Virus record (IMG/VR): IMGVR_UViG_3300044833_000104 | Coordinates: 1-61,920 of that record | Reading direction: 5' to 3' (one strand) | From: a virus | Lineage: Duplodnaviria > Caudoviricetes | Length of the DNA: 61,920 nt | In this document: positions 128 to 60,848 of the stretch, piece after piece | Layout: each line of letters begins with the position of its first letter | Numbering within the stretch: position 1 is the first letter of the stretch | The notes under the pieces: model-generated | The model's database searches: none | What the model saw: the letters and a program-made list of their open reading frames with translations, nothing else | Told to the model about the DNA's origin: nothing | Program-made: the position numbers and the translations under genes

Positions 128-448
128 AAACACTTCTTCTGGAATGGTGTTAGTTCTGAGCGCACCATGAAGCATATCGCGGGTCGCGGGCTGCACTCCA
201 TTTTCAGGAGATCGGGGGTGCCAGCGGCACATGCCCATCGCTTCCGGCACACCCTGGCGACGGAGTTGATTGGCGCCGGTGCCAGCTTTGAGGTCGTCGC
301 GGACATCCTCGGGAATTCACCTGATGTCGTGCGGAAGCACTATGCAAAATGGTCACCGGCGCGACAGGTGAACATAGATTCGCTGATGGAGACCGTTCAT
401 TCGACCGCGACCTATACCACAATATCTCCGACTGACAGGGTCCAATGA
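1..448 (+). CDS. int: Tyrosine integrase, C-terminal part (continues from 61096 across the junction; 381 aa in total)
   Basis: HRFRHT (HxxR), VADILGNS and KHY catalytic motifs; in frame with the ORF starting at 61096. Confidence 0.95.
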   Translation, partial: GKRWRIFLRTEKNGKPVFLPIPDEMKRALDIVPVPRGCKGESKHFFWNGVSSERTMKHIAGRGLHSIFRRSGVPAAHAHRFRHTLATELIGAGASFEVVADILGNSPDVVRKHYAKWSPARQVNIDSLMETVHSTATYTTISPTDRVQ

Positions 449-451
449 GCC

Positions 452-636
452 GGGCACGTTTTGGGCACAGGCAAAAAATAGATCTGCAAGTCTTTGTTTA
501 TCAGCATGTTTACCGGTGGGCGGAGAGGGCCACGAACTTTTTGACGCTTAGCCTTTTCACCAACTTACTGATTTTACTAAGTGCCAGAAATGCAGGAAGT
601 GCAAAAAATGCAACCCGTGGGCACAAATTGGGCACG
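452..636. other. Probable attP region
   Basis: Directly after int. Paired arm-like repeats GGGCACGTTTTGGGCAC (452-468) and GGGCACAAATTGGGCAC (619-635); tRNA 3'-end-like segment on the minus strand (515-537, GTTCGTGGCCCTCTCCGCCCACC); IHF consensus AATCAGTAAGTTG on the minus strand at 561-573. Confidence 0.7.
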
Positions 637-792
637 CTGTTTTGCCGGACCTTCTACATTCACTTTCCGTTTCGTCGTCCACTATTGCCCTCGAAGTTTT
701 CCACATGTCCCTGTGCTTATCTCAATCCTGACCATCGGTTATCTCAATGTCGCCTAGCAAACATAGGGGTTACGTGTCATCAGAGATTCTGC

Positions 793-821
793 TTGTCTTT
801 TCCTGTAAGTGTGGTTACTGT
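793..821 (+). promoter_or_regulatory. Candidate sigma70 promoter of the 920-3493 operon
   Basis: TTGTCT-N17-TACTGT in an AT-rich intergenic region. Confidence 0.35.
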
Positions 822-919
822 GTTGATTCGTCGCACAGTTACCTTTTATGTTTTTCTTGGCCAGCGCCTTTCCCTTCGTAAGCTCTGTGTAGCGCATTCA
901 CGCGCCAAAGGAGCTTTCA

Positions 920-1099
920 GTGAAAACTCGTCTGGCTTTATTCTTCGCCTTTGTTATCGCCATGCTCGCGTCTATGCATATTGCCACGCGCAACTATGTG
1001 CCGGTTCTCGCGCAGTCAGGGCCTCCAGGAGTTCCACCTCCGTGCCCCCCGCTCTGCAACGACAAAGGCAGCCTCAAACCTGTGCCGCACAAGAAGTAG
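920..1099 (+). CDS. Small secreted Pro/Cys-rich peptide precursor, 59 aa (not in the ORF track)
   Basis: AAGGAG RBS at 908-913 and GTG start; MKTRLALFFAFVIAMLASMHIATRNYVPVLA-QSGPPGVPPPCPPLCNDKGSLKPVPHKK; basic N-terminus, hydrophobic core, VLA/Q cleavage-like site. Confidence 0.8.
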   Translation: MKTRLALFFAFVIAMLASMHIATRNYVPVLAQSGPPGVPPPCPPLCNDKGSLKPVPHKK

Positions 1100-1106
1100 A
1101 TCTCTC

Positions 1107-1136
1107 GCAAGGCGCTTCCGTATGGGGGCGCCTTGC
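1107..1136 (+). promoter_or_regulatory. Stem-loop between the peptide gene and the 7-TM gene, covering the downstream start codon
   Basis: GCAAGGCGCTTCC-GTAT-GGGGGCGCCTTGC, 13-bp stem with two GU pairs, no U-tract; TTG at 1133 lies in the 3' arm. Confidence 0.7.
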
Positions 1137-1882
1137 ATAGCCATATCTCCCATCCCCAGTTCATCCTCTGGCTGAGCGTCCTATCCGGGCAAACCCTCGT
1201 CGGAACAGTAGCCATGCTGCGACGTAATCGTATCTTGGCGCTCTATGTGGGGGTCGAGGTGGTGAATTCCCTCGCTCTTCTGTTCCTGGCCCGTGCAGGC
1301 TCAGCTTTGGCCTACTACAAAGGCTTTGTCGCGGGGACCACCGTCGACTATGCGGCGATGGCAATTCTCGTTGCCATGATCTATGGCACTATCCGCCAGA
1401 CCGGAATACCCAGCAAGCACCACGGCATTCTTCTTCAGATTCTTGCCGGGGGGCTCGCCGCCGTAGCGATCTTCGCCGCACCCTTCCCTCTTCAAACCAT
1501 CGCCCATCCTCAGTGGCGTACAGTGCTGGCGCTTGACCGGGTTGTCTTCAACTGGCTTGCGCTCCTCCTGTCCGTCGCCCCGTTTTACGCATGGATGATC
1601 GACGCTGCCAAAGATACCCGGCTGCTGCTGATCTACCTTGGCCTCGCGGTCTATGTCGCAGTCCATCTCCAGGCGTTGGACCTCGCTATTGCAAATCACT
1701 TTCGCTTCGCCAATCTCGGCGATTTTGCCTATTTTCTATCCCTTGTCCTGTGGTGCTGTTCCTCATTCTTCCAACCTGCTACTCATCAGTGGGACCCCGC
1801 AAAGACGGAGTTACTGAAGGAAGCACTTCGCCGCAAGCGGAGATCCCTTTACGAACAATCCACGCTAAGAAAGGTTTTTTAG
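1133..1882 (+). CDS. Polytopic (about 7 TM) membrane protein, putative peptide receptor
   Basis: About seven hydrophobic segments followed by a basic soluble C-terminal tail. Confidence 0.75.
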   Translation: MHSHISHPQFILWLSVLSGQTLVGTVAMLRRNRILALYVGVEVVNSLALLFLARAGSALAYYKGFVAGTTVDYAAMAILVAMIYGTIRQTGIPSKHHGILLQILAGGLAAVAIFAAPFPLQTIAHPQWRTVLALDRVVFNWLALLLSVAPFYAWMIDAAKDTRLLLIYLGLAVYVAVHLQALDLAIANHFRFANLGDFAYFLSLVLWCCSSFFQPATHQWDPAKTELLKEALRRKRRSLYEQSTLRKVF

Positions 1883-1885
1883 ACC

Positions 1886-2413
1886 ATGAATTCGATCTAT
1901 TCCGGAGCAGCAACTCTCCTGGCCGGAGCTGGGACCCTTAGTACCCTTGGCACCTTAGTCTTCCTTCACCGCGGAACCGACCCGTCTATCGAGTCCATCC
2001 TCGAATCTACTCGCCACCTTTCGCCTTCGGGCGAAGCCGCCCTGCAGGAGGTTGCCGAAGAAAAGCTTCTGGCAGACAAACTGCTGGCTCCTGTCGAACT
2101 ATCCAAGGGCGACCGATCGACCATCTTTTGGAACTCGCGGATTTTTCTCTGTCTGGCGAATTGTATGCGACATAAATACCCCGAGGATCGCGAGCTCTTG
2201 GCAATATTTGGGGACTTTCAGCGCGATCACACCAGAATCAAATGCCTCATATTCCTTTCCTTTGTTGAGCAGGTTATTGGTAAACTTGGCGTCTGCCAGA
2301 TTTCGGAGTATCACCGTAAGCTTTTAGAGACATACGGGGATGAACTGGATCTCCTCGGCCTGATATCAGAAAAATGTGGACCGGAAGGGACCGCCATACA
2401 AGCGCTCTTATGA
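1886..2413 (+). CDS. Hypothetical protein with N-terminal membrane anchor and helical soluble domain
   Basis: Starts 3 nt after the 7-TM gene; hydrophobic N-terminal 28 aa. Confidence 0.7.
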   Translation: MNSIYSGAATLLAGAGTLSTLGTLVFLHRGTDPSIESILESTRHLSPSGEAALQEVAEEKLLADKLLAPVELSKGDRSTIFWNSRIFLCLANCMRHKYPEDRELLAIFGDFQRDHTRIKCLIFLSFVEQVIGKLGVCQISEYHRKLLETYGDELDLLGLISEKCGPEGTAIQALL

Positions 2414-2781
2414 CTACAGATTCACGCGAAGGACTGCGAAAGCTGATTGAGGACCTGGAAGAACAGCTACGTCCACTGAAAAAGACGCTTGCGACCCTGG
2501 ATAAGCTTGCTGCTGCCCGCAATATCCCCCTGTCGGAAGAGTCGCGGTATGCCAATATGCGCCCGGTAAACGTGGCCAAGGACATCCTCAAAGAACGAGG
2601 CGAGAAGATACCAGAGGATGAACTTATAAAGACGCTTGTCGATGGCGGGATTACCTTAGGCAAAAAGCGTGGGATTTACAACGTCAGTGTCGGGTTTCGC
2701 ATTGCCTACAAAGCCGGGACGTTGACCGTTGAGGGTAAGAACAGACTCGTCGGCCTGCCCGAGTGGTCTAAGAAGAAGTGA
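2410..2781 (+). CDS. Coiled-coil plus winged-helix-like DNA-binding protein (repressor candidate)
   Basis: ATGA overlap with the upstream stop; heptad segment LRKLIEDLEEQLRPLKKTL followed by a wHTH-like pattern (VAKDILKERGEKIPEDELIKTL...GTLTVEGKNRLVGLPEW). Confidence 0.55.
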   Translation: MTTDSREGLRKLIEDLEEQLRPLKKTLATLDKLAAARNIPLSEESRYANMRPVNVAKDILKERGEKIPEDELIKTLVDGGITLGKKRGIYNVSVGFRIAYKAGTLTVEGKNRLVGLPEWSKKK

Positions 2782-2812
2782 CATACGACTGAAGGTTCGG
2801 GAAGGACACTCA

Positions 2813-3493
2813 ATGGGCATAAACAGATTGGTTGTGTTGATCATCTGCAGTGCTGGGCTGACCTTTGCACAGATGCCTGACCCAGTAAATGTCCCGTTTT
2901 CCTTCAAGGGCAATAGTCTGGGAATGACGCTGCAAGCCTTCAAGGCTTCCAATAACCAGGGCCAGGTCTGGATAGCATGGGGACCCACTAACTGGCGAGG
3001 TAAAGCAAAAAAAGAGAACCAAAAGCAGGTTCCGACTCCGCTTTGTACGGATGATTACCCGAGCCTCGCAGGTGGTTTGTCACCTGGTGAGGTGTTTTGC
3101 AATCCCGATCCAGCAGAGACTAACCCTCAAGCGCGAACCGTCGCAGGCCTCCTCTTGCCGGGCATCAGTTACTACTTCTACAACGACAAGCTGTATAAAA
3201 TCGAGATGCGCTTTGCTGCCCGGAACTACGCCGTTATTGGAGCGGCGTTTAAGGACAAATATGGCCCTGAACCGGATCGCATTGAATCTCAGTATCAGAA
3301 CGGCTTTGGTGCACACTGGGTCGGCGAGTCTCTTTTCTGGAAACGAGGCACGCAGGCGGTCCTTCTCTATGAAGGATCGCAGAACGGTCCGGGTCAAGAC
3401 CAATACAGCGACATAGGGTCATCGACTGCTACCTTTTCGGATAGCGCCCTCGCGCCTCCTCCTGTCAAACCTCACGGCAGGTCTGACTTCTAG
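2813..3493 (+). CDS. Secreted/periplasmic hypothetical protein
   Basis: GAAGGA RBS; signal peptide MGINRLVVLIICSAGLTFA-Q. Confidence 0.7.
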   Translation: MGINRLVVLIICSAGLTFAQMPDPVNVPFSFKGNSLGMTLQAFKASNNQGQVWIAWGPTNWRGKAKKENQKQVPTPLCTDDYPSLAGGLSPGEVFCNPDPAETNPQARTVAGLLLPGISYYFYNDKLYKIEMRFAARNYAVIGAAFKDKYGPEPDRIESQYQNGFGAHWVGESLFWKRGTQAVLLYEGSQNGPGQDQYSDIGSSTATFSDSALAPPPVKPHGRSDF

Positions 3494-3518
3494 CCCCGGC
3501 GGGTGACCGGGCGAACAG

Positions 3519-3546
3519 AAACCCCTCCGGAGAGGGGTTTTGCTTT
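3519..3546. terminator. Intrinsic terminator, probably bidirectional
   Basis: AAACCCCTC-CGGA-GAGGGGTTT followed by TGCTTT; T-rich tail also on the minus strand. Confidence 0.8.
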
Positions 3547-3720
3547 GTGCGGGCTGGGCTCGATACCAACTGGCCTCTCTCGGTTGTTTCAGACGGTTCT
3601 AGTGGGGCCATCCGCCGTCGAATGCATGTCCGTCCACGCTGCCACACAAACTCAATCTTTGGTGCCAGCCGCTCCCCGTGGTTGAGTTCCCGCTTGGGCG
3701 AGACACGGGAAGCGGCTGGC
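3544..3720 (-). ncRNA. Candidate structured RNA: tRNA-like cloverleaf (3650-3544) preceded by a 17-bp hairpin (3720-3664)
   Basis: Minus strand: closing stem TTTGTGTGG/CCGCACAAA, D-like arm GCGTG-GACGGA-CATGC, central arm TTCGACGG/CCGTC(T)GAA, T-like arm GTTGG-TATCGAGC-CCAGC; GU pairs favour the minus strand. Confidence 0.55.
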
Positions 3721-3792
3721 TGGCTCGACCCTAGCGGGGAGCTCAGAACATACATTAGCACCTCCAGGTCGTTTTCTATTCGCGACATAGAA

Positions 3793-3834
3793 CGACATAA
3801 TTATGTTGACTTAAATAAATCGCAGGAATAGGGT
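3793..3834 (+). promoter_or_regulatory. Early rightward promoter with overlapping palindromic operator
   Basis: CGACATAATTATGTTG (3793-3808) overlaps TTGACT-N17-TAGGGT (3806-3834); extra half-site CGACATA at 3783. Confidence 0.75.
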
Positions 3835-3864
3835 GTCTTCAACGACTTGTTGAGGGTCGCGAAG

Positions 3865-4080
3865 ATGCCAAAATTCCTATCTATAGTCAGGGTTCACTGG
3901 AACCCCCGCATGAGCAGCAAGCGCCTGAAAGAGCTGCTCAACACCCCAAACATCCACGAAGACGATGAGGACGCCATCCTTGGCGAACTCCAAATGCGGG
4001 ACGCTGAAGAGCTTCCGTACGACTATCCGTGCCTCGACTACTCCCTTCAGCGGCACGAAGCCATGGGAGGCCCGCGATGA
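3865..4080 (+). CDS. Hypothetical protein (start uncertain)
   Basis: First ORF after the promoter; ATGA overlap with the next gene. Confidence 0.5.
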   Translation: MPKFLSIVRVHWNPRMSSKRLKELLNTPNIHEDDEDAILGELQMRDAEELPYDYPCLDYSLQRHEAMGGPR

Positions 4081-5973: not shown

Positions 5974-6294
5974 ATGAGTGGGTTTACGCAAGGACCATGG
6001 CAGTTCAACCCTGAGCGCGGCGATATCACAGCGCCGAGCGTCCCGAAAGAGTCCTCCCGCTTAGGTCGCGGGGATGATCGTGACGAAATTTGGAATTACT
6101 ACGGGGGCGAGCTTGTGGCTGAGACGGTTTCGGCATGTGACGGGCCGCTGCTCACCGCCGCGCTGGAACTCTATCAAGCCCTGCGGGCTCTGCGCTCCTT
6201 CATGTGGGCTCAAGGGTACGCGGACCAAACAGCGGAAATGGCGCAAGCAGATGCGGCGATCGCGAAAGTTGAGGCCCGGAGTAAGGCGGGATAG
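5974..6294 (+). CDS. Hypothetical phage protein (xTPGPW...AAPEL-type small family)
   Basis: FTQGPW N-terminus, LLTAALELYQALR, ADAAIAKVE C-terminus; resembles 10785-11102. Confidence 0.65.
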   Translation: MSGFTQGPWQFNPERGDITAPSVPKESSRLGRGDDRDEIWNYYGGELVAETVSACDGPLLTAALELYQALRALRSFMWAQGYADQTAEMAQADAAIAKVEARSKAG

Positions 6295-6299
6295 ACATT

Positions 6300-6380
6300 G
6301 ACATGGCGCGGCATAGCTTGGCATGGCACGGCTGGGCGCGGTATGGCGTGACAAGGGTTCCCGCTCTCAGGAGCGGGGGC
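6300..6380 (+). ncRNA. GGY-NN pentamer array 1 plus 3' hairpin (candidate guide RNA)
   Basis: GACAT GGCGC GGCAT AGCTT GGCAT GGCAC GGCTG GGCGC GGTAT GGCGT GACAA GG, then GTTCCCGCTC-TCAG-GAGCGGGGGC. Confidence 0.75.
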
Positions 6381-6421
6381 AAAACAAAAACGAACAAGAC
6401 CAACAAAGGAGAAATCGCACA

Positions 6422-7036
6422 ATGTACAAAACTCTAAATCGCACACTAACTGGCATCTCACCGATTCTTTTACACAACGGTCGGCTGGCAAACCCGCTCG
6501 ACCCAATGTCGAAGGCAATGAAGGAAGTAAGCGCTAAAAAGAAAAAGACCGATGACGACCACAAACTGATGTCAGACATTGAGTGGCTCGGTTCAATCTA
6601 CACAGCGAGCGAAATCAACGTGACAATTCGCGGCTATAACGTTGCCGTCAAGTGCGACGGACCTGTCTGCATACCGGGCGACAACATCTCATCCATGCTC
6701 GCACTTGCAGGTGCAAAGTCGCGCCGGAAACAAGCATTCACGGCTGGCGTGTTGGTGGATGGCGATTTCCCCTTGCAATACTCCGGCCCCTCAACTCTCG
6801 CAGAGTTGTTTGCGAAGCCCGCATATCGATACATCAAGGGCTGCCGAATCGGCCAGTCGCGTGTCATGCGAACGCGGCCAATTTTCCGTTCGTGGAGTTT
6901 ACAAATTGCAATTCAGTATCTGTCGGATTTGTTGAATCCGAATGAGGTTGATGAAGCATTGACGCTTGCAGGCGCACAGATTGGCTTGTGTGACTATCGC
7001 CCGAGGTATGGACGGTTCTCGGTGCAAGCCGCATAA
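6422..7036 (+). CDS. Stand-alone RAMP/Cas7-like protein (Vipr-like), 204 aa
   Basis: AAGGAG RBS; RAMP-like motifs LTGISPILLH, VCIPGDNISSML, RTRPIFRSW and a C-terminal Gly-rich loop AGAQIGLCDYRPRYGRF; flanked by pentamer arrays. Confidence 0.75.
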   Translation: MYKTLNRTLTGISPILLHNGRLANPLDPMSKAMKEVSAKKKKTDDDHKLMSDIEWLGSIYTASEINVTIRGYNVAVKCDGPVCIPGDNISSMLALAGAKSRRKQAFTAGVLVDGDFPLQYSGPSTLAELFAKPAYRYIKGCRIGQSRVMRTRPIFRSWSLQIAIQYLSDLLNPNEVDEALTLAGAQIGLCDYRPRYGRFSVQAA

Positions 7037-7190: not shown

Positions 7191-7287
7191 GGCAACGCAC
7201 GGCAGTGCAGGGCGTGGTTAGGCATGGATGGGCCCGGTCTGGTTCGGCTTGGTATGGCAAGGAGTTCGCATCCTCCGGGGCGCGAAC
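7191..7287 (+). ncRNA. GGY-NN pentamer array 3 plus 3' hairpin (candidate guide RNA)
   Basis: 14 units at 7191-7260 (11 perfect GGY), ending GGTAT GGCAA GG like array 2, then GTTCGCATCC-TCCG-GGGCGCGAAC. Confidence 0.8.
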
Positions 7288-7311
7288 AAAAATTCTAAGT
7301 AAGAGGTTTCG

Positions 7312-7758
7312 ATGCTTTCAAAATATCCGTTTGACTGGGAAGAGCTTCAAAAGGGCGACATACTAACTACCGAAGAATTGCAGCGAATCACCGGCAAGAC
7401 GCCGGGGTCAGATGAGTTTCGTTTCGCATGTATGACGTTGCAGTCGCTGATTCAAGACAAGACCGGCTTCACCGTCAAGTTGAAAGGCGACGAGACTTTG
7501 CAGGTTCTAACAGACGCGGAAGCAGCAGAGCATAATAGCCGCCTCTTCGGACAGTTCATGCGATCGATGGTGTCTCGTCATGCACTCAACTGCGAGGTTG
7601 ACGTGGACAATCTGAATCCAACGTCACGCGCGAAACATGATCGGACGCTAGTCACTCAGTCGCGCTACGTTTCCGCAATCGTACAAACGACCAAGGAAAT
7701 CAGGATAGCCAAGCGCGATGAAGTGCCGGGTATCGAATCGGAGACGGAGGCCCACTGA
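7312..7758 (+). CDS. Hypothetical protein, possible accessory of the RAMP/pentamer locus
   Basis: GAGGT RBS directly after array 3; wHTH-like N-terminal half. Confidence 0.6.
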   Translation: MLSKYPFDWEELQKGDILTTEELQRITGKTPGSDEFRFACMTLQSLIQDKTGFTVKLKGDETLQVLTDAEAAEHNSRLFGQFMRSMVSRHALNCEVDVDNLNPTSRAKHDRTLVTQSRYVSAIVQTTKEIRIAKRDEVPGIESETEAH

Positions 7759-8036
7759 TGGAAACCTCTCGCCGCATCCGCGAAGTCCATGAGCGCAGTC
7801 AGGAAGAAGTCGCCAGGCTGCTTGCCATCTCGCAGGCCCAGGTAGCGCGTGCAGAGCAGTCAGCTTTACGCAAGCTGCGCGCCAACCCCGAAGCGAAGCT
7901 GCTGATGCGGTATGTCTCCCAGCACCACACCGGCGGTACTTCTCCCTACGTGGAGCCAGCGCTCATGCGAAAGTTCGGCGCCGGTTGTGAAGATGCCAGC
8001 TTTCTTACTATCAGCGGTTTTGCACCCAATCTTTAA
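7758..8036 (+). CDS. Sigma70 region 4-like HTH protein
   Basis: RSQEEVARLLAISQAQVARAEQSALRKLR. Confidence 0.75.
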   Translation: METSRRIREVHERSQEEVARLLAISQAQVARAEQSALRKLRANPEAKLLMRYVSQHHTGGTSPYVEPALMRKFGAGCEDASFLTISGFAPNL

Positions 8037-8051
8037 AAGGAGAAACACACA

Positions 8052-8609
8052 ATGTTAATGACAGAAATTCGCAAGCAGTCCCTAGGCGTTATTGAGCAGG
8101 TCAACGATGGTATCGCCGACCTCGCACGACAGGCTGAGGAGATTCTTGGCTATGGCGTGCTTTCAAGAAACTTCGTCACAACCGCAATCGAACTCACCAC
8201 TCTGCAGACTGCGCTCAAGGAACTCGATATCGATGTGATGGTTCCCGGAGATGTTCAGCATTACCAGAAGGAGCGGCAGATCGAGCAGACCAAGGCCAAT
8301 TTTGAAGTTTGGCTGAAGGATTTCATGTCTTCCGGTACGGCAGGTCGCTACAACCGATTCGATGGCCCTGCTTGGGTCGAGGAGAAGATTGCCGAGTACA
8401 AGCAGCCCATCCCGGAGTTTGTGCTGGCGAAGGCCGTTCAGATAAAGCAGCGAGTTCCGGACTGTGAGATTTACGTGGAATACCTGTCCGATCATCCGGA
8501 CCCGTTCCTCATCATAGCGATCCCAGAAGGTCGGCCTTACTACCCCGCGAAAGAACGCTACCACGTTGAGGTTTGGGCAGAACCGAAGTTCGAAGGTCGT
8601 ATCCGCTAG
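8052..8609 (+). CDS. Hypothetical phage protein
   Basis: AAGGAG RBS; 185 aa; PIPEFVL, PDPFL and WAEPKF motifs. Confidence 0.7.
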   Translation: MLMTEIRKQSLGVIEQVNDGIADLARQAEEILGYGVLSRNFVTTAIELTTLQTALKELDIDVMVPGDVQHYQKERQIEQTKANFEVWLKDFMSSGTAGRYNRFDGPAWVEEKIAEYKQPIPEFVLAKAVQIKQRVPDCEIYVEYLSDHPDPFLIIAIPEGRPYYPAKERYHVEVWAEPKFEGRIR

Positions 8610-49249: not shown

Positions 49250-50632
49250 TTATTCGCTGATGCGCACGAGCGATGCAGGCTGGCTTGTCGCGGGGGTTCC
49301 AGGAAGCGCCGTGACCGGTTGCTGATTTAGTTGGATATGCTTGACATCTCCACCCTTGTATGGGTTCATGTCCTCAAGGTCGCGGACCTCGTTTGGATCC
49401 ACCACCGCGTTCTGCAGCATGATCGAGTAGCCCTGCATGCGGGTCAGGAAGTCGCCGCGGAGCAGTTCGTTGGTGTTGTGTTTGAAGTAATAGCCCTTGG
49501 CCTTCTCGTCCGGCGTGAGCACGCATCGCCATAGGTCCTGCTCCCAGCGTGTAAACCACGGCTGCATCGTAACTTTCACAAACTCGAGGGCCAACTGCTC
49601 GATGTTAGAAAATGTGGCGCGACTCAGATCGCCGACGAGATGAGGAGATAGCAGAAACCAGCGGCAAATCTCGTGAATATCGAAAAGCCGCGTCTCCAGC
49701 ATCTGTGAGTCAACGGCGCTGAGACCTGTCTGCTGATACGTCGCGCCAAGACCATCGAGGATGGGAACCTTGTGCGGCTCAGCGTAAGTCTTTTCCCAAT
49801 CGGCGCGGAACTTGTCGAAGCTCGCATCATCCTGGAACTTCTTATCGAACTTCAGCAGGTACGGCACCCGCCCGCCACCGGCATAGAAGCGCGCAACGTT
49901 CCTTTCGACTGATAGCGATGTGCCGATCGACTGCCGCGCCATCGTAATGACCGAGTATCCGCGAAGACCGTCCCACCCTATCCCTCGAATGTGGAGGATG
50001 TCCTGGGGCTTGCCTGGATCAAGCGCATAGGCCGTCTCATTGTTACCGGCGACGCCGCCAATACCATGCTTGACGATGTAGACAAGGCGCTTCTGGCCAG
50101 TCTTTTCGCGATCTACTGTCACCTGCCCAGGATCCAGCGCGCGCAGTTCAATCGCTTCACCGGTTCCGCTGCGCCGGATAATATGCGCATAGCCGTTGCC
50201 CTGTAGTGCGCAATGGCTTGTCCGTGTCTCCTGAAAGCTCATCGCCGACATTTCATCATTCGGCGCGTTCTGGAGTGCGTTGAACATCGGCTTGTCTTCT
50301 GCGAGCCGCTTCGCTCCATTCTTCCGTTGGAGCATCACCAACGGCGTTGCACCCTGCGTCTCGCTGATTATGCGGTTGCAGGCCCACACAACAGAATGGT
50401 TGAGCGCGGTCTCGAGCGATACGGGTTCACCCGACCATGCCGGCATCCCGCCCGACAGAAGCGTGTAAATTCCGGGGTAGCCGTTGCGCGCATACCAGCC
50501 GGCGTTGACGGCATCGAACGAGATGCCACCACCCTTCTGCCCACTGATGTCGAGCGCGAGAGTCTCGGCTCCCATCCCTGCCTTGACTGTTCTGAATGCT
50601 CCTTTGACCGCGTCGACGATGGCTGGAAACAC
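49250..50632 (-). CDS. Portal protein, HK97 family
   Basis: VWACNRIISE, ILHIRG, ATFSNIEQ, PNEVRDLE. Confidence 0.95.
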   Translation of the reverse strand: MFPAIVDAVKGAFRTVKAGMGAETLALDISGQKGGGISFDAVNAGWYARNGYPGIYTLLSGGMPAWSGEPVSLETALNHSVVWACNRIISETQGATPLVMLQRKNGAKRLAEDKPMFNALQNAPNDEMSAMSFQETRTSHCALQGNGYAHIIRRSGTGEAIELRALDPGQVTVDREKTGQKRLVYIVKHGIGGVAGNNETAYALDPGKPQDILHIRGIGWDGLRGYSVITMARQSIGTSLSVERNVARFYAGGGRVPYLLKFDKKFQDDASFDKFRADWEKTYAEPHKVPILDGLGATYQQTGLSAVDSQMLETRLFDIHEICRWFLLSPHLVGDLSRATFSNIEQLALEFVKVTMQPWFTRWEQDLWRCVLTPDEKAKGYYFKHNTNELLRGDFLTRMQGYSIMLQNAVVDPNEVRDLEDMNPYKGGDVKHIQLNQQPVTALPGTPATSQPASLVRISE

Positions 50633-52323
50633 TAGTTGAGGCTCCGCAGTCCGGTATAGGTCATAGTGTTCGATTCCGCCACTAGGGCTGGGCTGAGCAT
50701 GGTTATGGTCGCCGCCAATCCGTCGATACGCTTCGACGATTTCAGTCGTTCTGGTTTCGTGGGTTGGCAGTTGTCCTTGCGGTCATACTGAAGCTGCATG
50801 CAGGCAGCGTGCCAGTTGTAAACCGGGTTGTTGCCATGGCGGATCTTCTGATCGAGATATGCTGCGAGGATGAACTTGGTTGGGTAGCTCAACTGCATGA
50901 AGTTCTGCTGCACCTCGATCGCGTTGATTCCCTCATCGTTGAGTTCCATCGCCTCGGTGCGAAAGTTGCAGCGGTCGAAGGCGAGGTCTTGAAGATCAAA
51001 CATCTCCCGGCCCCAGCGGATCCTGTCCTTGACGACGCGCAGGTCGATCGCATTCCCGCCGGTTGCTGTCACGAATCCGCGCTTCACCCAATCCGCGAAC
51101 GGCAGGCGGCAGATGCGCTCGAGTTCCGGCACCCTCTCCTCCGGAACAAAGAAGAACGGCAGGAACGTCCAGACGCCGTTACCGCCAAAGGGTTCGAAGC
51201 CAAACACCACTGCTGTAAAGTCCGTGGTCCAGGAAGCGTCCACGCCCACATGGCACTGCTTGTCGATCAGCCCCCACTTGCGGATGAGGAGTTCGACGTC
51301 ATATTTCGGCCATTCCCGAAGATCCACATCTCCACCACATGCCTGCCATTTCGCCATATCGATGATCGGCTCTTGCTGGCTGGCTATGGGGACGTTGAGG
51401 TGATACCGGAGGAACTTCGACCGGTTCGCCGGCTGCGCGATCGCCTTATCGAGCTCGACCACTATCGCAGCGTCTTTCAGGAAACCGCCCAGATCCTCAT
51501 GGCTTGGGTTCGCCATGACGCGGGCTTCGCGCGATTTCCAATACTCAGGGTCGCTCTTGATCTTCGCGTTGTCAGCCTCCCAGATGGCCGGATAGAACTG
51601 TGGAGACTGAACAGAGCCTTCGAGGACCTTCTTCGCAAACTCATACTCCCCAAACCATAGGGGAGACTCGTACTCGGCGCCGGCAGTCGTGATCGCTATG
51701 TCCAATGGCTCCTCACGGCTGATCTGCCCTTTTGTGGTGACGTCGTAGAGGGTTTCCGCCTTCGCATTCTTCCAGCGGTGCATCTCATCGCGGATGTTCA
51801 GACTCGGCCGGATGCCGTCCTGCACGTCGCCGTCAGCAGAGAGCACCTGATAAGTGCCCCCGCCGTCGCGCCGGATGATTCGCTTTGTGCTGGGGAGGAC
51901 CTTCAGCCGGGAACGGAGGTCGGGGTTCGCATTCACCAACATCGCCGCGGCCTTGAACACGATCCCTGCTTGTTCCTTCGCCGCCGCCGAGCCGTATGCT
52001 TCCGGGTTGAGTTCGTCCTCCATGAGGATGTGATAGAGAGGTAACCCGGCAGTGATGAATGACTTACCGTTTTGCTTTGCCGTCGAGATGTACGCGCGCC
52101 GATGCTGGCGCTTGCCGTCAGACGCCTGTACCTTTCCGAAGAGTGCGCGAAGCACTGTGCGATGCCAGCCCATGAGCGCCAGGTTTAGTGGTGGGTAAAG
52201 CACCCGCTCGTAGAAAGCCTCGACCTTGCAGCCGCGGCACTGCGGTTTCCCGTTCGACCTCGTCTCGCACCATGTATCCGCATTGCAGTAAGCGCAGGTG
52301 TCAGGACGGTAGTTGCTACCCAC
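50632..52323 (-). CDS. terL: Terminase large subunit
   Basis: AKQNGKS, IRDEMH, ITTAG, GVDAS..DFTA, RIDGLAA. Confidence 0.95.
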   Translation of the reverse strand: MGSNYRPDTCAYCNADTWCETRSNGKPQCRGCKVEAFYERVLYPPLNLALMGWHRTVLRALFGKVQASDGKRQHRRAYISTAKQNGKSFITAGLPLYHILMEDELNPEAYGSAAAKEQAGIVFKAAAMLVNANPDLRSRLKVLPSTKRIIRRDGGGTYQVLSADGDVQDGIRPSLNIRDEMHRWKNAKAETLYDVTTKGQISREEPLDIAITTAGAEYESPLWFGEYEFAKKVLEGSVQSPQFYPAIWEADNAKIKSDPEYWKSREARVMANPSHEDLGGFLKDAAIVVELDKAIAQPANRSKFLRYHLNVPIASQQEPIIDMAKWQACGGDVDLREWPKYDVELLIRKWGLIDKQCHVGVDASWTTDFTAVVFGFEPFGGNGVWTFLPFFFVPEERVPELERICRLPFADWVKRGFVTATGGNAIDLRVVKDRIRWGREMFDLQDLAFDRCNFRTEAMELNDEGINAIEVQQNFMQLSYPTKFILAAYLDQKIRHGNNPVYNWHAACMQLQYDRKDNCQPTKPERLKSSKRIDGLAATITMLSPALVAESNTMTYTGLRSLN

Positions 52324-60785: not shown

Positions 60786-60848
60786 ATTTCAACAAAATTA
60801 TCTCGACATAATTATGTCGTTGACATATCGCATCAGTTTGGGCAATAG
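60781..60848. promoter_or_regulatory. Divergent promoter region with a perfect 16-bp operator
   Basis: CGACATAATTATGTCG at 60804-60819 abutting TTGACA (60820-60825); extra GACATA half-sites at 60781 and 60822. Confidence 0.8.

Follow-up and report, generated by a model that had tools for sequence, protein, structure and literature searches.

A soil-phage gene cassette that may relay an exported peptide through a seven-helix membrane protein to a winged-helix protein

Closest described systems

The 61,920-bp virus record IMGVR_UViG_3300044833_000104 from IMG/VR, analysed as a whole and called the window here, carries beside its integrase gene a cassette of four core genes (920–2781). They code for the 59-amino-acid (aa) precursor of a predicted exported peptide, a seven-transmembrane (7-TM) protein, a protein with one N-terminal hydrophobic segment (the anchored protein) and a winged helix-turn-helix (wHTH) protein; a fifth gene follows them in the window. 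An earlier note on this DNA had proposed a phage peptide-signalling operon in which density sensing through a membrane receptor feeds the lysis-lysogeny decision. We know of no phage in which an exported peptide is coupled to both a kinase-free membrane protein and a small protein of the winged-helix type, nor, to our knowledge, has a decision or lysogenic-conversion module been described in phages of Acidobacteriota-type soil hosts. A search of the open-access literature found no description of such a peptide/7-TM/anchor/wHTH cassette, and the four core products belong to families without description in Pfam, PHROGs, NCBIfam, PADLOC and the PDB.

Sdp of Bacillus subtilis offers the logic that we return to below. 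In the available part of one account (PMC2910880), SdpC is an exported peptide that binds the polytopic SdpI, which then sequesters the winged-helix autorepressor SdpR, and SdpI homologues often share an operon with their regulator. The cassette likewise combines a predicted exported peptide with a polytopic membrane protein and a winged-helix regulator; the proposal is that the membrane protein binds the peptide on the outside and that the regulator is retained at the membrane on the inside. SdpI, however, has a six-TM core and two conserved motifs, whereas the cassette protein has seven helices and an N-terminal tail predicted to face out, and the two share no relation in sequence or fold. 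The cassette also adds the anchored protein, its peptide gene belongs to the same operon, with translation probably coupled, and its carrier is a phage, probably of a diderm host. Membership of the Sdp families was set aside, as no SdpI-named Pfam family appeared in 36 7-TM members at E ≤ 0.1 and no ArsR-type HTH family in any of seven wHTH members at E ≤ 10.

The mature peptides of arbitrium and other RRNPP systems are 5–10 aa long, come from the C-terminus of a pro-peptide and differ between phages. In arbitrium of Bacillus phages (AimP/AimR/AimX) the peptide is taken up and bound by a receptor in the cytoplasm, as the available part of PMC6458997 describes it. The cassette resembles arbitrium in that a phage, and a temperate one, encodes a putative secreted peptide adjoining a regulator, but it has a membrane protein in the receptor's place and a long, Cys/Pro-rich peptide that is highly conserved between phages. 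An arbitrium-type peptide was rejected on these grounds, the predicted tail being 28–32 aa long and 81–84% identical, against 47–74% for the other cassette proteins. So was an RRNPP system as such: the five cassette products (Pfam E ≤ 1, NCBIfam) and 30 early-arm products contain no tetratricopeptide-repeat (TPR) or RRNPP family, and the family scans, as the earlier note had observed, gave neither a TPR/RRNPP receptor nor a histidine kinase.

Two further systems share parts of the layout. The Clostridioides difficile phage phiCDHM1 carries agr genes, including AgrB (PF04647) and a histidine kinase (HATPase_c); as far as the available part of that report goes (PMC3901668), these too are phage-carried genes for a pre-peptide and for membrane proteins from a pathway that senses peptides, thought to have been captured from a host. 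The cassette has no AgrB or HATPase_c domain (Pfam, NCBIfam) and is not a member of this group. Lambda expresses rexAB together with cI, and Sbash genes 30/31 encode a polytopic membrane protein and its cytoplasmic partner (available part of PMC6426596), while RexA binds DNA non-specifically (available part of PMC11077077). These pairs resemble the cassette in being prophage-borne, with a polytopic protein and a cytoplasmic, possibly DNA-binding partner near immunity or integration genes, but the membrane protein in them is a four-TM channel, its partner has DUF4747, and an exported peptide is absent. With seven TM helices, no DUF4747 (Pfam) and no PADLOC model, the cassette was not assigned to a RexAB-like group. 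For the wHTH protein taken singly, the HARE-HTH of RNA polymerase delta (8x6g_E, 2krc, 6zca_D) superposes over 72 residues with a root-mean-square deviation of 2.5 and a TM-score of 0.67, a match that is not significant (Foldseek E ≥ 0.017), and the cassette protein adds a 37-residue N-terminal helix to what the delta N-domain has.

The peptide, the membrane proteins and the winged-helix protein

Our tentative reading of the cassette is a translationally linked relay of peptide, membrane complex and regulator, similar in logic to SdpC-SdpI-SdpR without being a member of those families. Two of its features can be tested directly, namely that the 7-TM gene starts within a hairpin just past the peptide stop and that the peptide is unusually conserved. 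For comparison we used the DNA of five related loci, two from IMG/VR phages (L002 and L003) and three from short metagenome contigs (L004–L006). Gene order is kept in all informative loci, with the peptide open reading frame (ORF), the hairpin and the wHTH gene each in 4/4 and the anchored protein in 5/5.

The peptide ORF starts with GTG, 6 nt behind the Shine-Dalgarno (SD) sequence AAAGGAG (907–913). It is missing from the protein collection, in which its query returned P0018 alone; further peptide proteins that have been called are P0018, on seven contigs, and P0061, and the pairing of P0018 with P0012 is putative, based on their longest contigs being of equal length. Residues 1–31 would form a signal or anchor segment with an n-region MKTR, a 15-residue hydrophobic core (Kyte-Doolittle 2.16) and a long c-region of 12 residues, followed by the tail QSGPPGVPPPCPPLCNDKGSLKPVPHKK of 28–32 aa. 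Two cleavage sites are possible, V-L-A/Q, which in the window peptide agrees with the −3/−1 rule, and S18/M19 as the alternative, and it is possible that the segment remains uncleaved as an N-in anchor.

By its pattern of change the peptide ORF evolves as coding sequence and is more than a chance ORF: it precedes the 7-TM gene in all four loci that have upstream DNA, its indels come in threes and its ratio of nonsynonymous to synonymous substitution (dN/dS) is lowest in the peptide frame. The aligned copies differ by four indels, each with a length divisible by 3, and three of these fall in the hydrophobic core or the signal end. Among L002, L003 and L004, dN/dS is 0.26–0.35 in the peptide frame, 0.80–0.91 in the second and 1.8–4.2 in the third; between the window and its relatives the picture is less clear (0.59–0.77, 0.50–0.92 and 1.04–1.15, respectively), and all pairs rest on few substitutions, 11–37 overall and 11–15 within L002/L003/L004. 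All six peptide sequences keep LAQ, the motif GPxGxPxPCPPxC, the two Cys and PHKK at the C-terminus. Overall identity of the peptide among L002, L003 and P0018 is 86%, with 81–84% over the last 32 residues, compared with 59–74% for the 7-TM protein, 48–55% for the anchored protein and 47–59% for the wHTH protein of the same relatives; the window peptide is 59–63% identical to the others and the window 7-TM protein 45–50%. Judged by these identities, the peptide is the most conserved cassette product. The earlier note had staked its proposal on the ORF being conserved beside 7-TM homologues, and this is what the four loci show.

Part of the conservation of the peptide region lies, going by the alignment, at the nucleotide level. 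Three phages share an 88-nt block that differs at a single position, where the start codon reads GTG in the window and ATG in L002 and L003; at the protein level, the genes around it are only 45–74% identical. This block is a candidate RNA element, or it could be a recombination joint. In its 5′ untranslated region (UTR) a predicted hairpin pairs the GGAG (910–913) of the peptide SD; the fold of 875–925 has −15.9 kcal/mol and a z of −2.1, with 5 of 200 shuffles as good. Rfam gave no match in 400–4000 at E ≤ 1.

A second, 13-bp hairpin begins 8 nt behind the peptide stop, with −25.8 kcal/mol in the window and −25.5 to −27.8 kcal/mol across 4/4 loci. Its loops are all different in the four loci and its stem is retained, with one change of A-U to G-U. 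GGGGG (1124–1128) lies in the 3′ arm, as does the TTG (1133–1135) at which the 7-TM gene starts. A terminator was ruled out because a T tract is absent after the stem. Since a ribosome ending at 1097–1099 would reach the 5′ arm of the hairpin, translation of the 7-TM gene is, from this geometry, probably coupled to that of the peptide.

The TTG start matters for the 7-TM protein itself, as the deposited call P0001 (222 aa, ATG at 1214) loses the first TM helix. This helix is kept in 15 of 16 homologues, with H2 and Q9 at least 90% conserved. The AlphaFold2 (AF2) model has a predicted local distance difference test score (pLDDT) of 73.6 and contains seven TM helices and a C-terminal helix (222–248), and its N-terminal helix reaches a pLDDT of 87–90. 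By the positive-inside rule all 17 sequences are N-out/C-in, with 7–13 K+R inside and 0–5 outside. Mean column identity is 0.77 for the cytoplasmic and 0.68 for the outer segments. On the predicted topology the invariant TGIP (90–93), the A-x-D-x-R motif (A159, D161, R163) and the basic C-terminal helix are cytoplasmic, and K160 is nearly invariant. Within the membrane lie the acidic residues D72 and D135, both invariant, and D183, nearly so; the peptide tail that they would face ends in KPVPHKK. In the relative L002 the 7-TM ORF (6001–6849) lacks the usual stop and enters the gene of the anchored protein for about 30 codons in another frame (282 aa, P0007).

Sixteen homologues of the 7-TM protein, 43–84% identical and all on metagenome or viral contigs, came from a word-based search of 5.8 billion proteins. 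A hidden Markov model (HMM) search of 1.84 billion representatives returned 38 clusters within E ≤ 1e-3, of which 22 reached E ≤ 1e-10 and 6 reached E ≤ 1e-30. The 38 have lengths of 108–288 aa (all but two 222–288 aa); these clusters, at least 38 in public data, are defined at 50% identity. Pfam over 36 members gave nothing at threshold and listed 11 families at E ≤ 0.1, with 7TMR-DISM_7TM matched by a single member (E 0.011). Foldseek against the PDB reached E 0.13 at best with TM-scores below 0.47, and PDB sequence profiles E 0.79; the known 7-TM sensor modules (7TMR-DISM, GPCR, rhodopsin) gave no profile or fold match of significance. The nearest neighbours in the Atlas are hypothetical Acidobacteriota clusters; sensor domains of GGDEF proteins and histidine kinases appear only at TM-scores of 0.48–0.61. 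From these look-alikes, which are weak evidence, the host is probably a diderm of the Acidobacteriota. A cassette captured from a host, which the earlier note had allowed for, is compatible with the 38 clusters and the Acidobacteriota look-alikes. Searching with the 7-TM and wHTH proteins by tblastn gave 0 matches in 50,697 phage records and 72,556 plasmids.

The gene for the anchored protein begins 3 nt behind the 7-TM stop. Its hydrophobic N-terminal segment is modest (Kyte-Doolittle 1.6), its homologues (n = 5) are 45–54% identical with MxxIxSGAAxLLAGA conserved, and the rest of the protein is predicted to be cytoplasmic because basic residues directly follow the hydrophobic segment, as they do in 5/5 sequences. 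It has no relatives in Pfam, PHROGs, PADLOC or NCBIfam and 0 matches among PDB sequence profiles; in the ESM Atlas no score reached 0.9, and the model there, with a pLDDT of 0.42, was too poor to use. The start of the wHTH gene overlaps the stop of the anchored protein in an ATGA (2410–2413). The wHTH model (AF2, pLDDT 79) has an N-terminal helix (3–37) and then the order H-b-H-H-b-b, and the long helix appears suited to pairing. The best PDB folds are RNA polymerase delta N-domains (E 0.017–0.08, TM-score 0.43–0.67 on the target, not significant), followed by Fur and ArsR-type regulators, with CadC/SmtB at E 0.14–0.2 (Foldseek). Pfam HARE-HTH (PF05066) was found in 1 of 7 wHTH members (E 0.02), and PDB sequence profiles reached E 0.27. 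L003 has tandem wHTH paralogues (7267–7674 and 7710–8078), the first with a longer wing and merely 30–33% identical to the window protein.

For all five cassette products, Pfam, PHROGs, PADLOC and NCBIfam returned nothing at or above threshold, and the family scans gave no enzyme signature. Foldseek searches of the PDB and BFVD had no hit at E ≤ 0.001. The layout given in the earlier note held up well. It had described a 59-aa ORF passed over by the gene track, with a strong ribosome-binding site and a signal peptide, then a hairpin, a protein of about seven TM helices, a membrane-anchored protein 3 nt later and an ATGA-coupled winged-helix-like protein. The AF2 models support the seven helices and the winged-helix fold, and two details had to be corrected: the hairpin contains the 7-TM start, which gives the 7-TM protein 249 aa instead of the 222 of call P0001, and in the window a fifth gene stands before the terminator.

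Table 1. Features of the cassette and its surroundings (window coordinates; a dot marks features without strand)
Feature	Position	Strand	Basis
Putative attP region, 3′ of int	448–760	.	repeats and low GC
Putative cassette promoter, TTGTCT-N17-TACTGT	793–821	+	alignment of three loci
Conserved block: 5′ UTR, SD, first 12 peptide codons	868–955	+	alignment
Predicted 5′ UTR hairpin pairing the peptide SD	880–916	+	folding
59-aa precursor of predicted exported Cys/Pro-rich peptide	920–1099	+	ORF read, signal-type layout, conservation
13-bp hairpin behind the peptide stop	1107–1136	+	folding, four loci
249-aa 7-TM protein, undescribed family	1133–1882	+	AF2 model, homologues, positive-inside rule
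175-aa protein with one N-terminal hydrophobic segment	1886–2413	+	hydropathy, five-sequence alignment
123-aa protein, long helix and C-terminal winged helix	2410–2781	+	AF2 model
Fifth gene, predicted secreted 226-aa protein	2813–3493	+	signal peptide, before shared terminator
Bidirectional intrinsic terminator, GC hairpin between an A tract and a T tract	3518–3548	.	sequence, four loci
16-bp operator-like site over early-promoter −35 TTGACT	3793–3808	.	one-mismatch twin of the palindrome
Perfect 16-bp palindrome adjoining TTGACA, 5′ of xis-int	60804–60819		0 mismatches

The backbone around the cassette differs between relatives. Against G001, the structural genes of the window are 64–94% identical and the cassette merely 43–59%. 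G002 has almost no structural genes in common with the window, yet the cassette is present (45–61%) with a different integrase adjacent. Because it is kept across differing backbones and is more diverged than structural genes, the cassette is, on these comparisons, a mobile functional unit, tied to the early-promoter side rather than to a particular integrase. Single-protein and distant-alignment searches of viral contigs found no new loci; a scan of genome contigs gave 115 pattern matches, 0 of which were confirmed, and a second scan gave 0.

How the cassette may work

In the relay that we tentatively prefer, the first gene would give a Sec-type precursor whose Cys/Pro-rich basic tail comes to lie beyond the cytoplasmic membrane, released into the periplasm or held by its anchor. 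Ribosomes finishing the peptide ORF would open the hairpin and expose the SD-like run and the TTG at which the 7-TM gene starts, so that peptide and 7-TM protein would be made together, with the anchored and wHTH proteins following through close coupling. The 7-TM and anchored proteins would form a membrane complex whose outer face meets the peptide, and the conserved cytoplasmic loops and basic C-terminal helix of the 7-TM protein would hold or release the coiled-coil/winged-helix protein, which may act on DNA or on RNA polymerase. The output might be autoregulation with self-protection or an input to phage gene control. The predicted sidedness fits an outside-in relay, with the peptide tail and the 7-TM N-terminus out and the loops, the anchored domain and the wHTH protein in. 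The analysis itself establishes the gene set and how well it is conserved, selection on the peptide's coding sequence, the hairpins, and the topology and folds as predicted; export, every protein contact and the output are what we infer here. If true, the relay would be a new outside-in signalling construction in bacteria or phages and would provide a candidate for the regulator that these phages seem to lack.

Several points weigh against this relay. The outer segments of the 7-TM protein are short (2–10 residues) and offer little surface for a 28-aa ligand. No product matches the SdpI or ArsR/SdpR families, and the best fold relative of the wHTH protein, itself not a significant match, is an RNA-polymerase-binding domain and not a sequence-specific repressor. 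The protein contacts are proposals drawn from sequences and models, and a peptide this conserved might just as well serve as a small structural subunit. The hairpin over the peptide SD is statistically weak, and as it lies in an invariant block that precludes covariation testing it serves as a lead only. Most counts rest on 4–7 sequences, and two of the relatives come from one metagenome.

It is possible, though rather unlikely, that the cassette is expressed from the prophage for exclusion or abortive infection, as with Rex or Sbash gp30/gp31. The 7-TM protein would then be the membrane effector, acting as a channel or blocking entry, the anchored and wHTH proteins would sense the incoming phage and the peptide would be an accessory subunit in the membrane or periplasm. 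Accessory defence genes are often mobile between backbones and diverge fast, and the cassette does move between unrelated backbones and diverges faster than structural genes. It adjoins the integration genes and has its own putative promoter, so expression in lysogens is possible, and the conserved D72, D135 and D183 sit within membrane helices; in the known pairs, too, a partner in the cytoplasm accompanies a polytopic membrane protein (available part of PMC6426596). However, PADLOC matched 0 of 5 products, the Pfam scan of the cassette products found no DUF4747/RexA-like domain and the TM helices number seven instead of four. Furthermore, Rex-like systems lack an exported peptide, whereas here the peptide is the best-conserved product and its translation seems to gate the 7-TM protein. 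The SdpC/SdpI precedent, in which a toxin is paired with a polytopic protein for immunity and signalling (available part of PMC2910880), raises the possibility of toxin and immunity, in which the peptide would be a bacteriocin-like killer of non-lysogens, the 7-TM protein would confer immunity and the other two proteins would regulate. The peptide is small, with a cationic C-terminus and two Cys, it is encoded directly before a polytopic membrane protein, and its strong conservation would suit a conserved host target. We nevertheless regard this as very doubtful, given that the cassette encodes no outer-membrane export route and no processing enzyme and has no match to a bacteriocin or immunity family (Pfam, NCBIfam). 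Either of these two explanations, if true, would mean a new accessory system of soil prophages.

The membrane-receptor density sensing of the earlier note divides into two parts. The receptor part is consistent with the predicted topology and its fit to an outside-in relay; density sensing and input to the lysis-lysogeny decision found no support. Communication between cells, in which a released peptide would report the density of lysogens or infections through a membrane receptor to a lysis-lysogeny regulator, is in our judgement improbable. In a diderm, Sec export carries a protein no farther than the periplasm, and the host here is probably a diderm. The peptide (81–87%) is also more conserved than its presumed receptor (59–74%), and an 81–84% identical tail is the opposite of the private codes expected of phages. 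The window and L002 have the half-site GACATAAT in common, but helix 3 of their wHTH proteins differs at most positions; across four phages helix 3 does not track the operator type, a comparison that is not decisive. On the other side, peptide, membrane protein and wHTH protein are conserved together between two operator-bearing early promoters, and the wHTH protein is among few regulator candidates, as the 30 early-arm products include no XRE/CI/Cro-type family. There is only a slim chance that the cassette is a lysis-lysogeny sensor with the wHTH protein as the missing repressor-type regulator, its availability set by a 7-TM complex that reads the exported peptide. Should this be so, it would be the first transmembrane, non-RRNPP, kinase-free phage peptide switch and the first in a diderm host. 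Finally, the short ORF might be a mere leader whose translation controls the 7-TM gene and whose product has no role of its own. Two predicted hairpins, masking the SD of the ORF and the 7-TM start, and the near-identical 88-nt block in three phages, which points to constraint at the nucleotide level, agree with a leader. This is nonetheless highly unlikely, since the C-terminal two thirds show synonymous change with the residues kept, the low dN/dS of 0.26–0.35 is confined to the peptide frame, all six sequences keep the Cys pair and end in PHKK, and the ORF has a signal-peptide layout with its indels mostly in the hydrophobic core or signal end.

The phage and the region around the cassette

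The window is a full virus record with direct terminal repeats of 127 nt and a completeness rating of 100%, and its integrase gene spans the record ends (61097 to 448). The large terminase gene (50632–52323) has relatives merely 33% identical among 50,697 deposited phages. Genes for a small terminase, HNH, ERF/YqaJ recombination and a D12 methylase are also present and identify it as a tailed temperate phage.

Downstream of int, the putative attP region contains the direct repeats GGGCAC-N5-GGGCAC at 452–468 and 619–635, a 9-nt periodic triple resembling AAGTGCA (579–612) and TTATCTCAAT, present twice in 717–748; the repeats look like arm sites. GC content is 47%, against 56.9% genome-wide. 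The sequence is not conserved in L002 and L003, which both have other integrases and carry tRNA-like fragments 3′ of int; a tRNA search found no complete tRNA in L001–L003. The repeats and the tRNA-like fragments in the relatives fit an attP 3′ of int (452–748), which makes this location plausible. We found no host junction at attP in the contigs of the probable source sample or in one sequencing run, of which a small share was covered. The position of the operon between int with the putative attP and the early promoter, as the earlier note had it, is thus supported, with the attP placement plausible.

Both hexamers of the putative cassette promoter are identical in the window, L002 and L003, with a variable spacer. 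A consensus promoter scan gave 0 promoter-like sites, this one lying below threshold, and we infer the assignment from the alignment only. The fifth gene belongs to the same transcription unit, occurs in the window only (1 of 4 loci) and has no family in Pfam, PHROGs, PADLOC or NCBIfam; in L002, L003 and L005 the terminator directly follows the wHTH gene. A terminator stands after the last cassette gene in 4/4 loci, with differing stem sequences.

On the circle, the twin operator-like sites, at two outward early promoters, flank xis, int, attP and the cassette. The sequences at the same promoter differ in the relatives, which have repeats of AGACATAAT in L002, ACACTAGTGT in L003 and TTCTTATATAAGAA in L005, and this suggests different immunity types. 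Another regulator candidate, going by its sequence, is a stand-alone HTH protein (7758–8036) resembling Sigma70_r4 (23.9 bits against a cut-off of 24.1), which is conserved in both related phages at 59–63%.

The non-coding stretch of about 250 nt that separates the terminator from the early promoter is partly conserved in all four loci (window 3549–3790, L002 7700–7920, L003 8130–8340, L005 1500–1740), with no match in Rfam. In the probable source sample, contigs carry diverged relatives of the cassette region near window positions 968 and 2750–3990, as loose ends and as pieces 90–95% identical, and therefore several related phages coexist in that soil sample.

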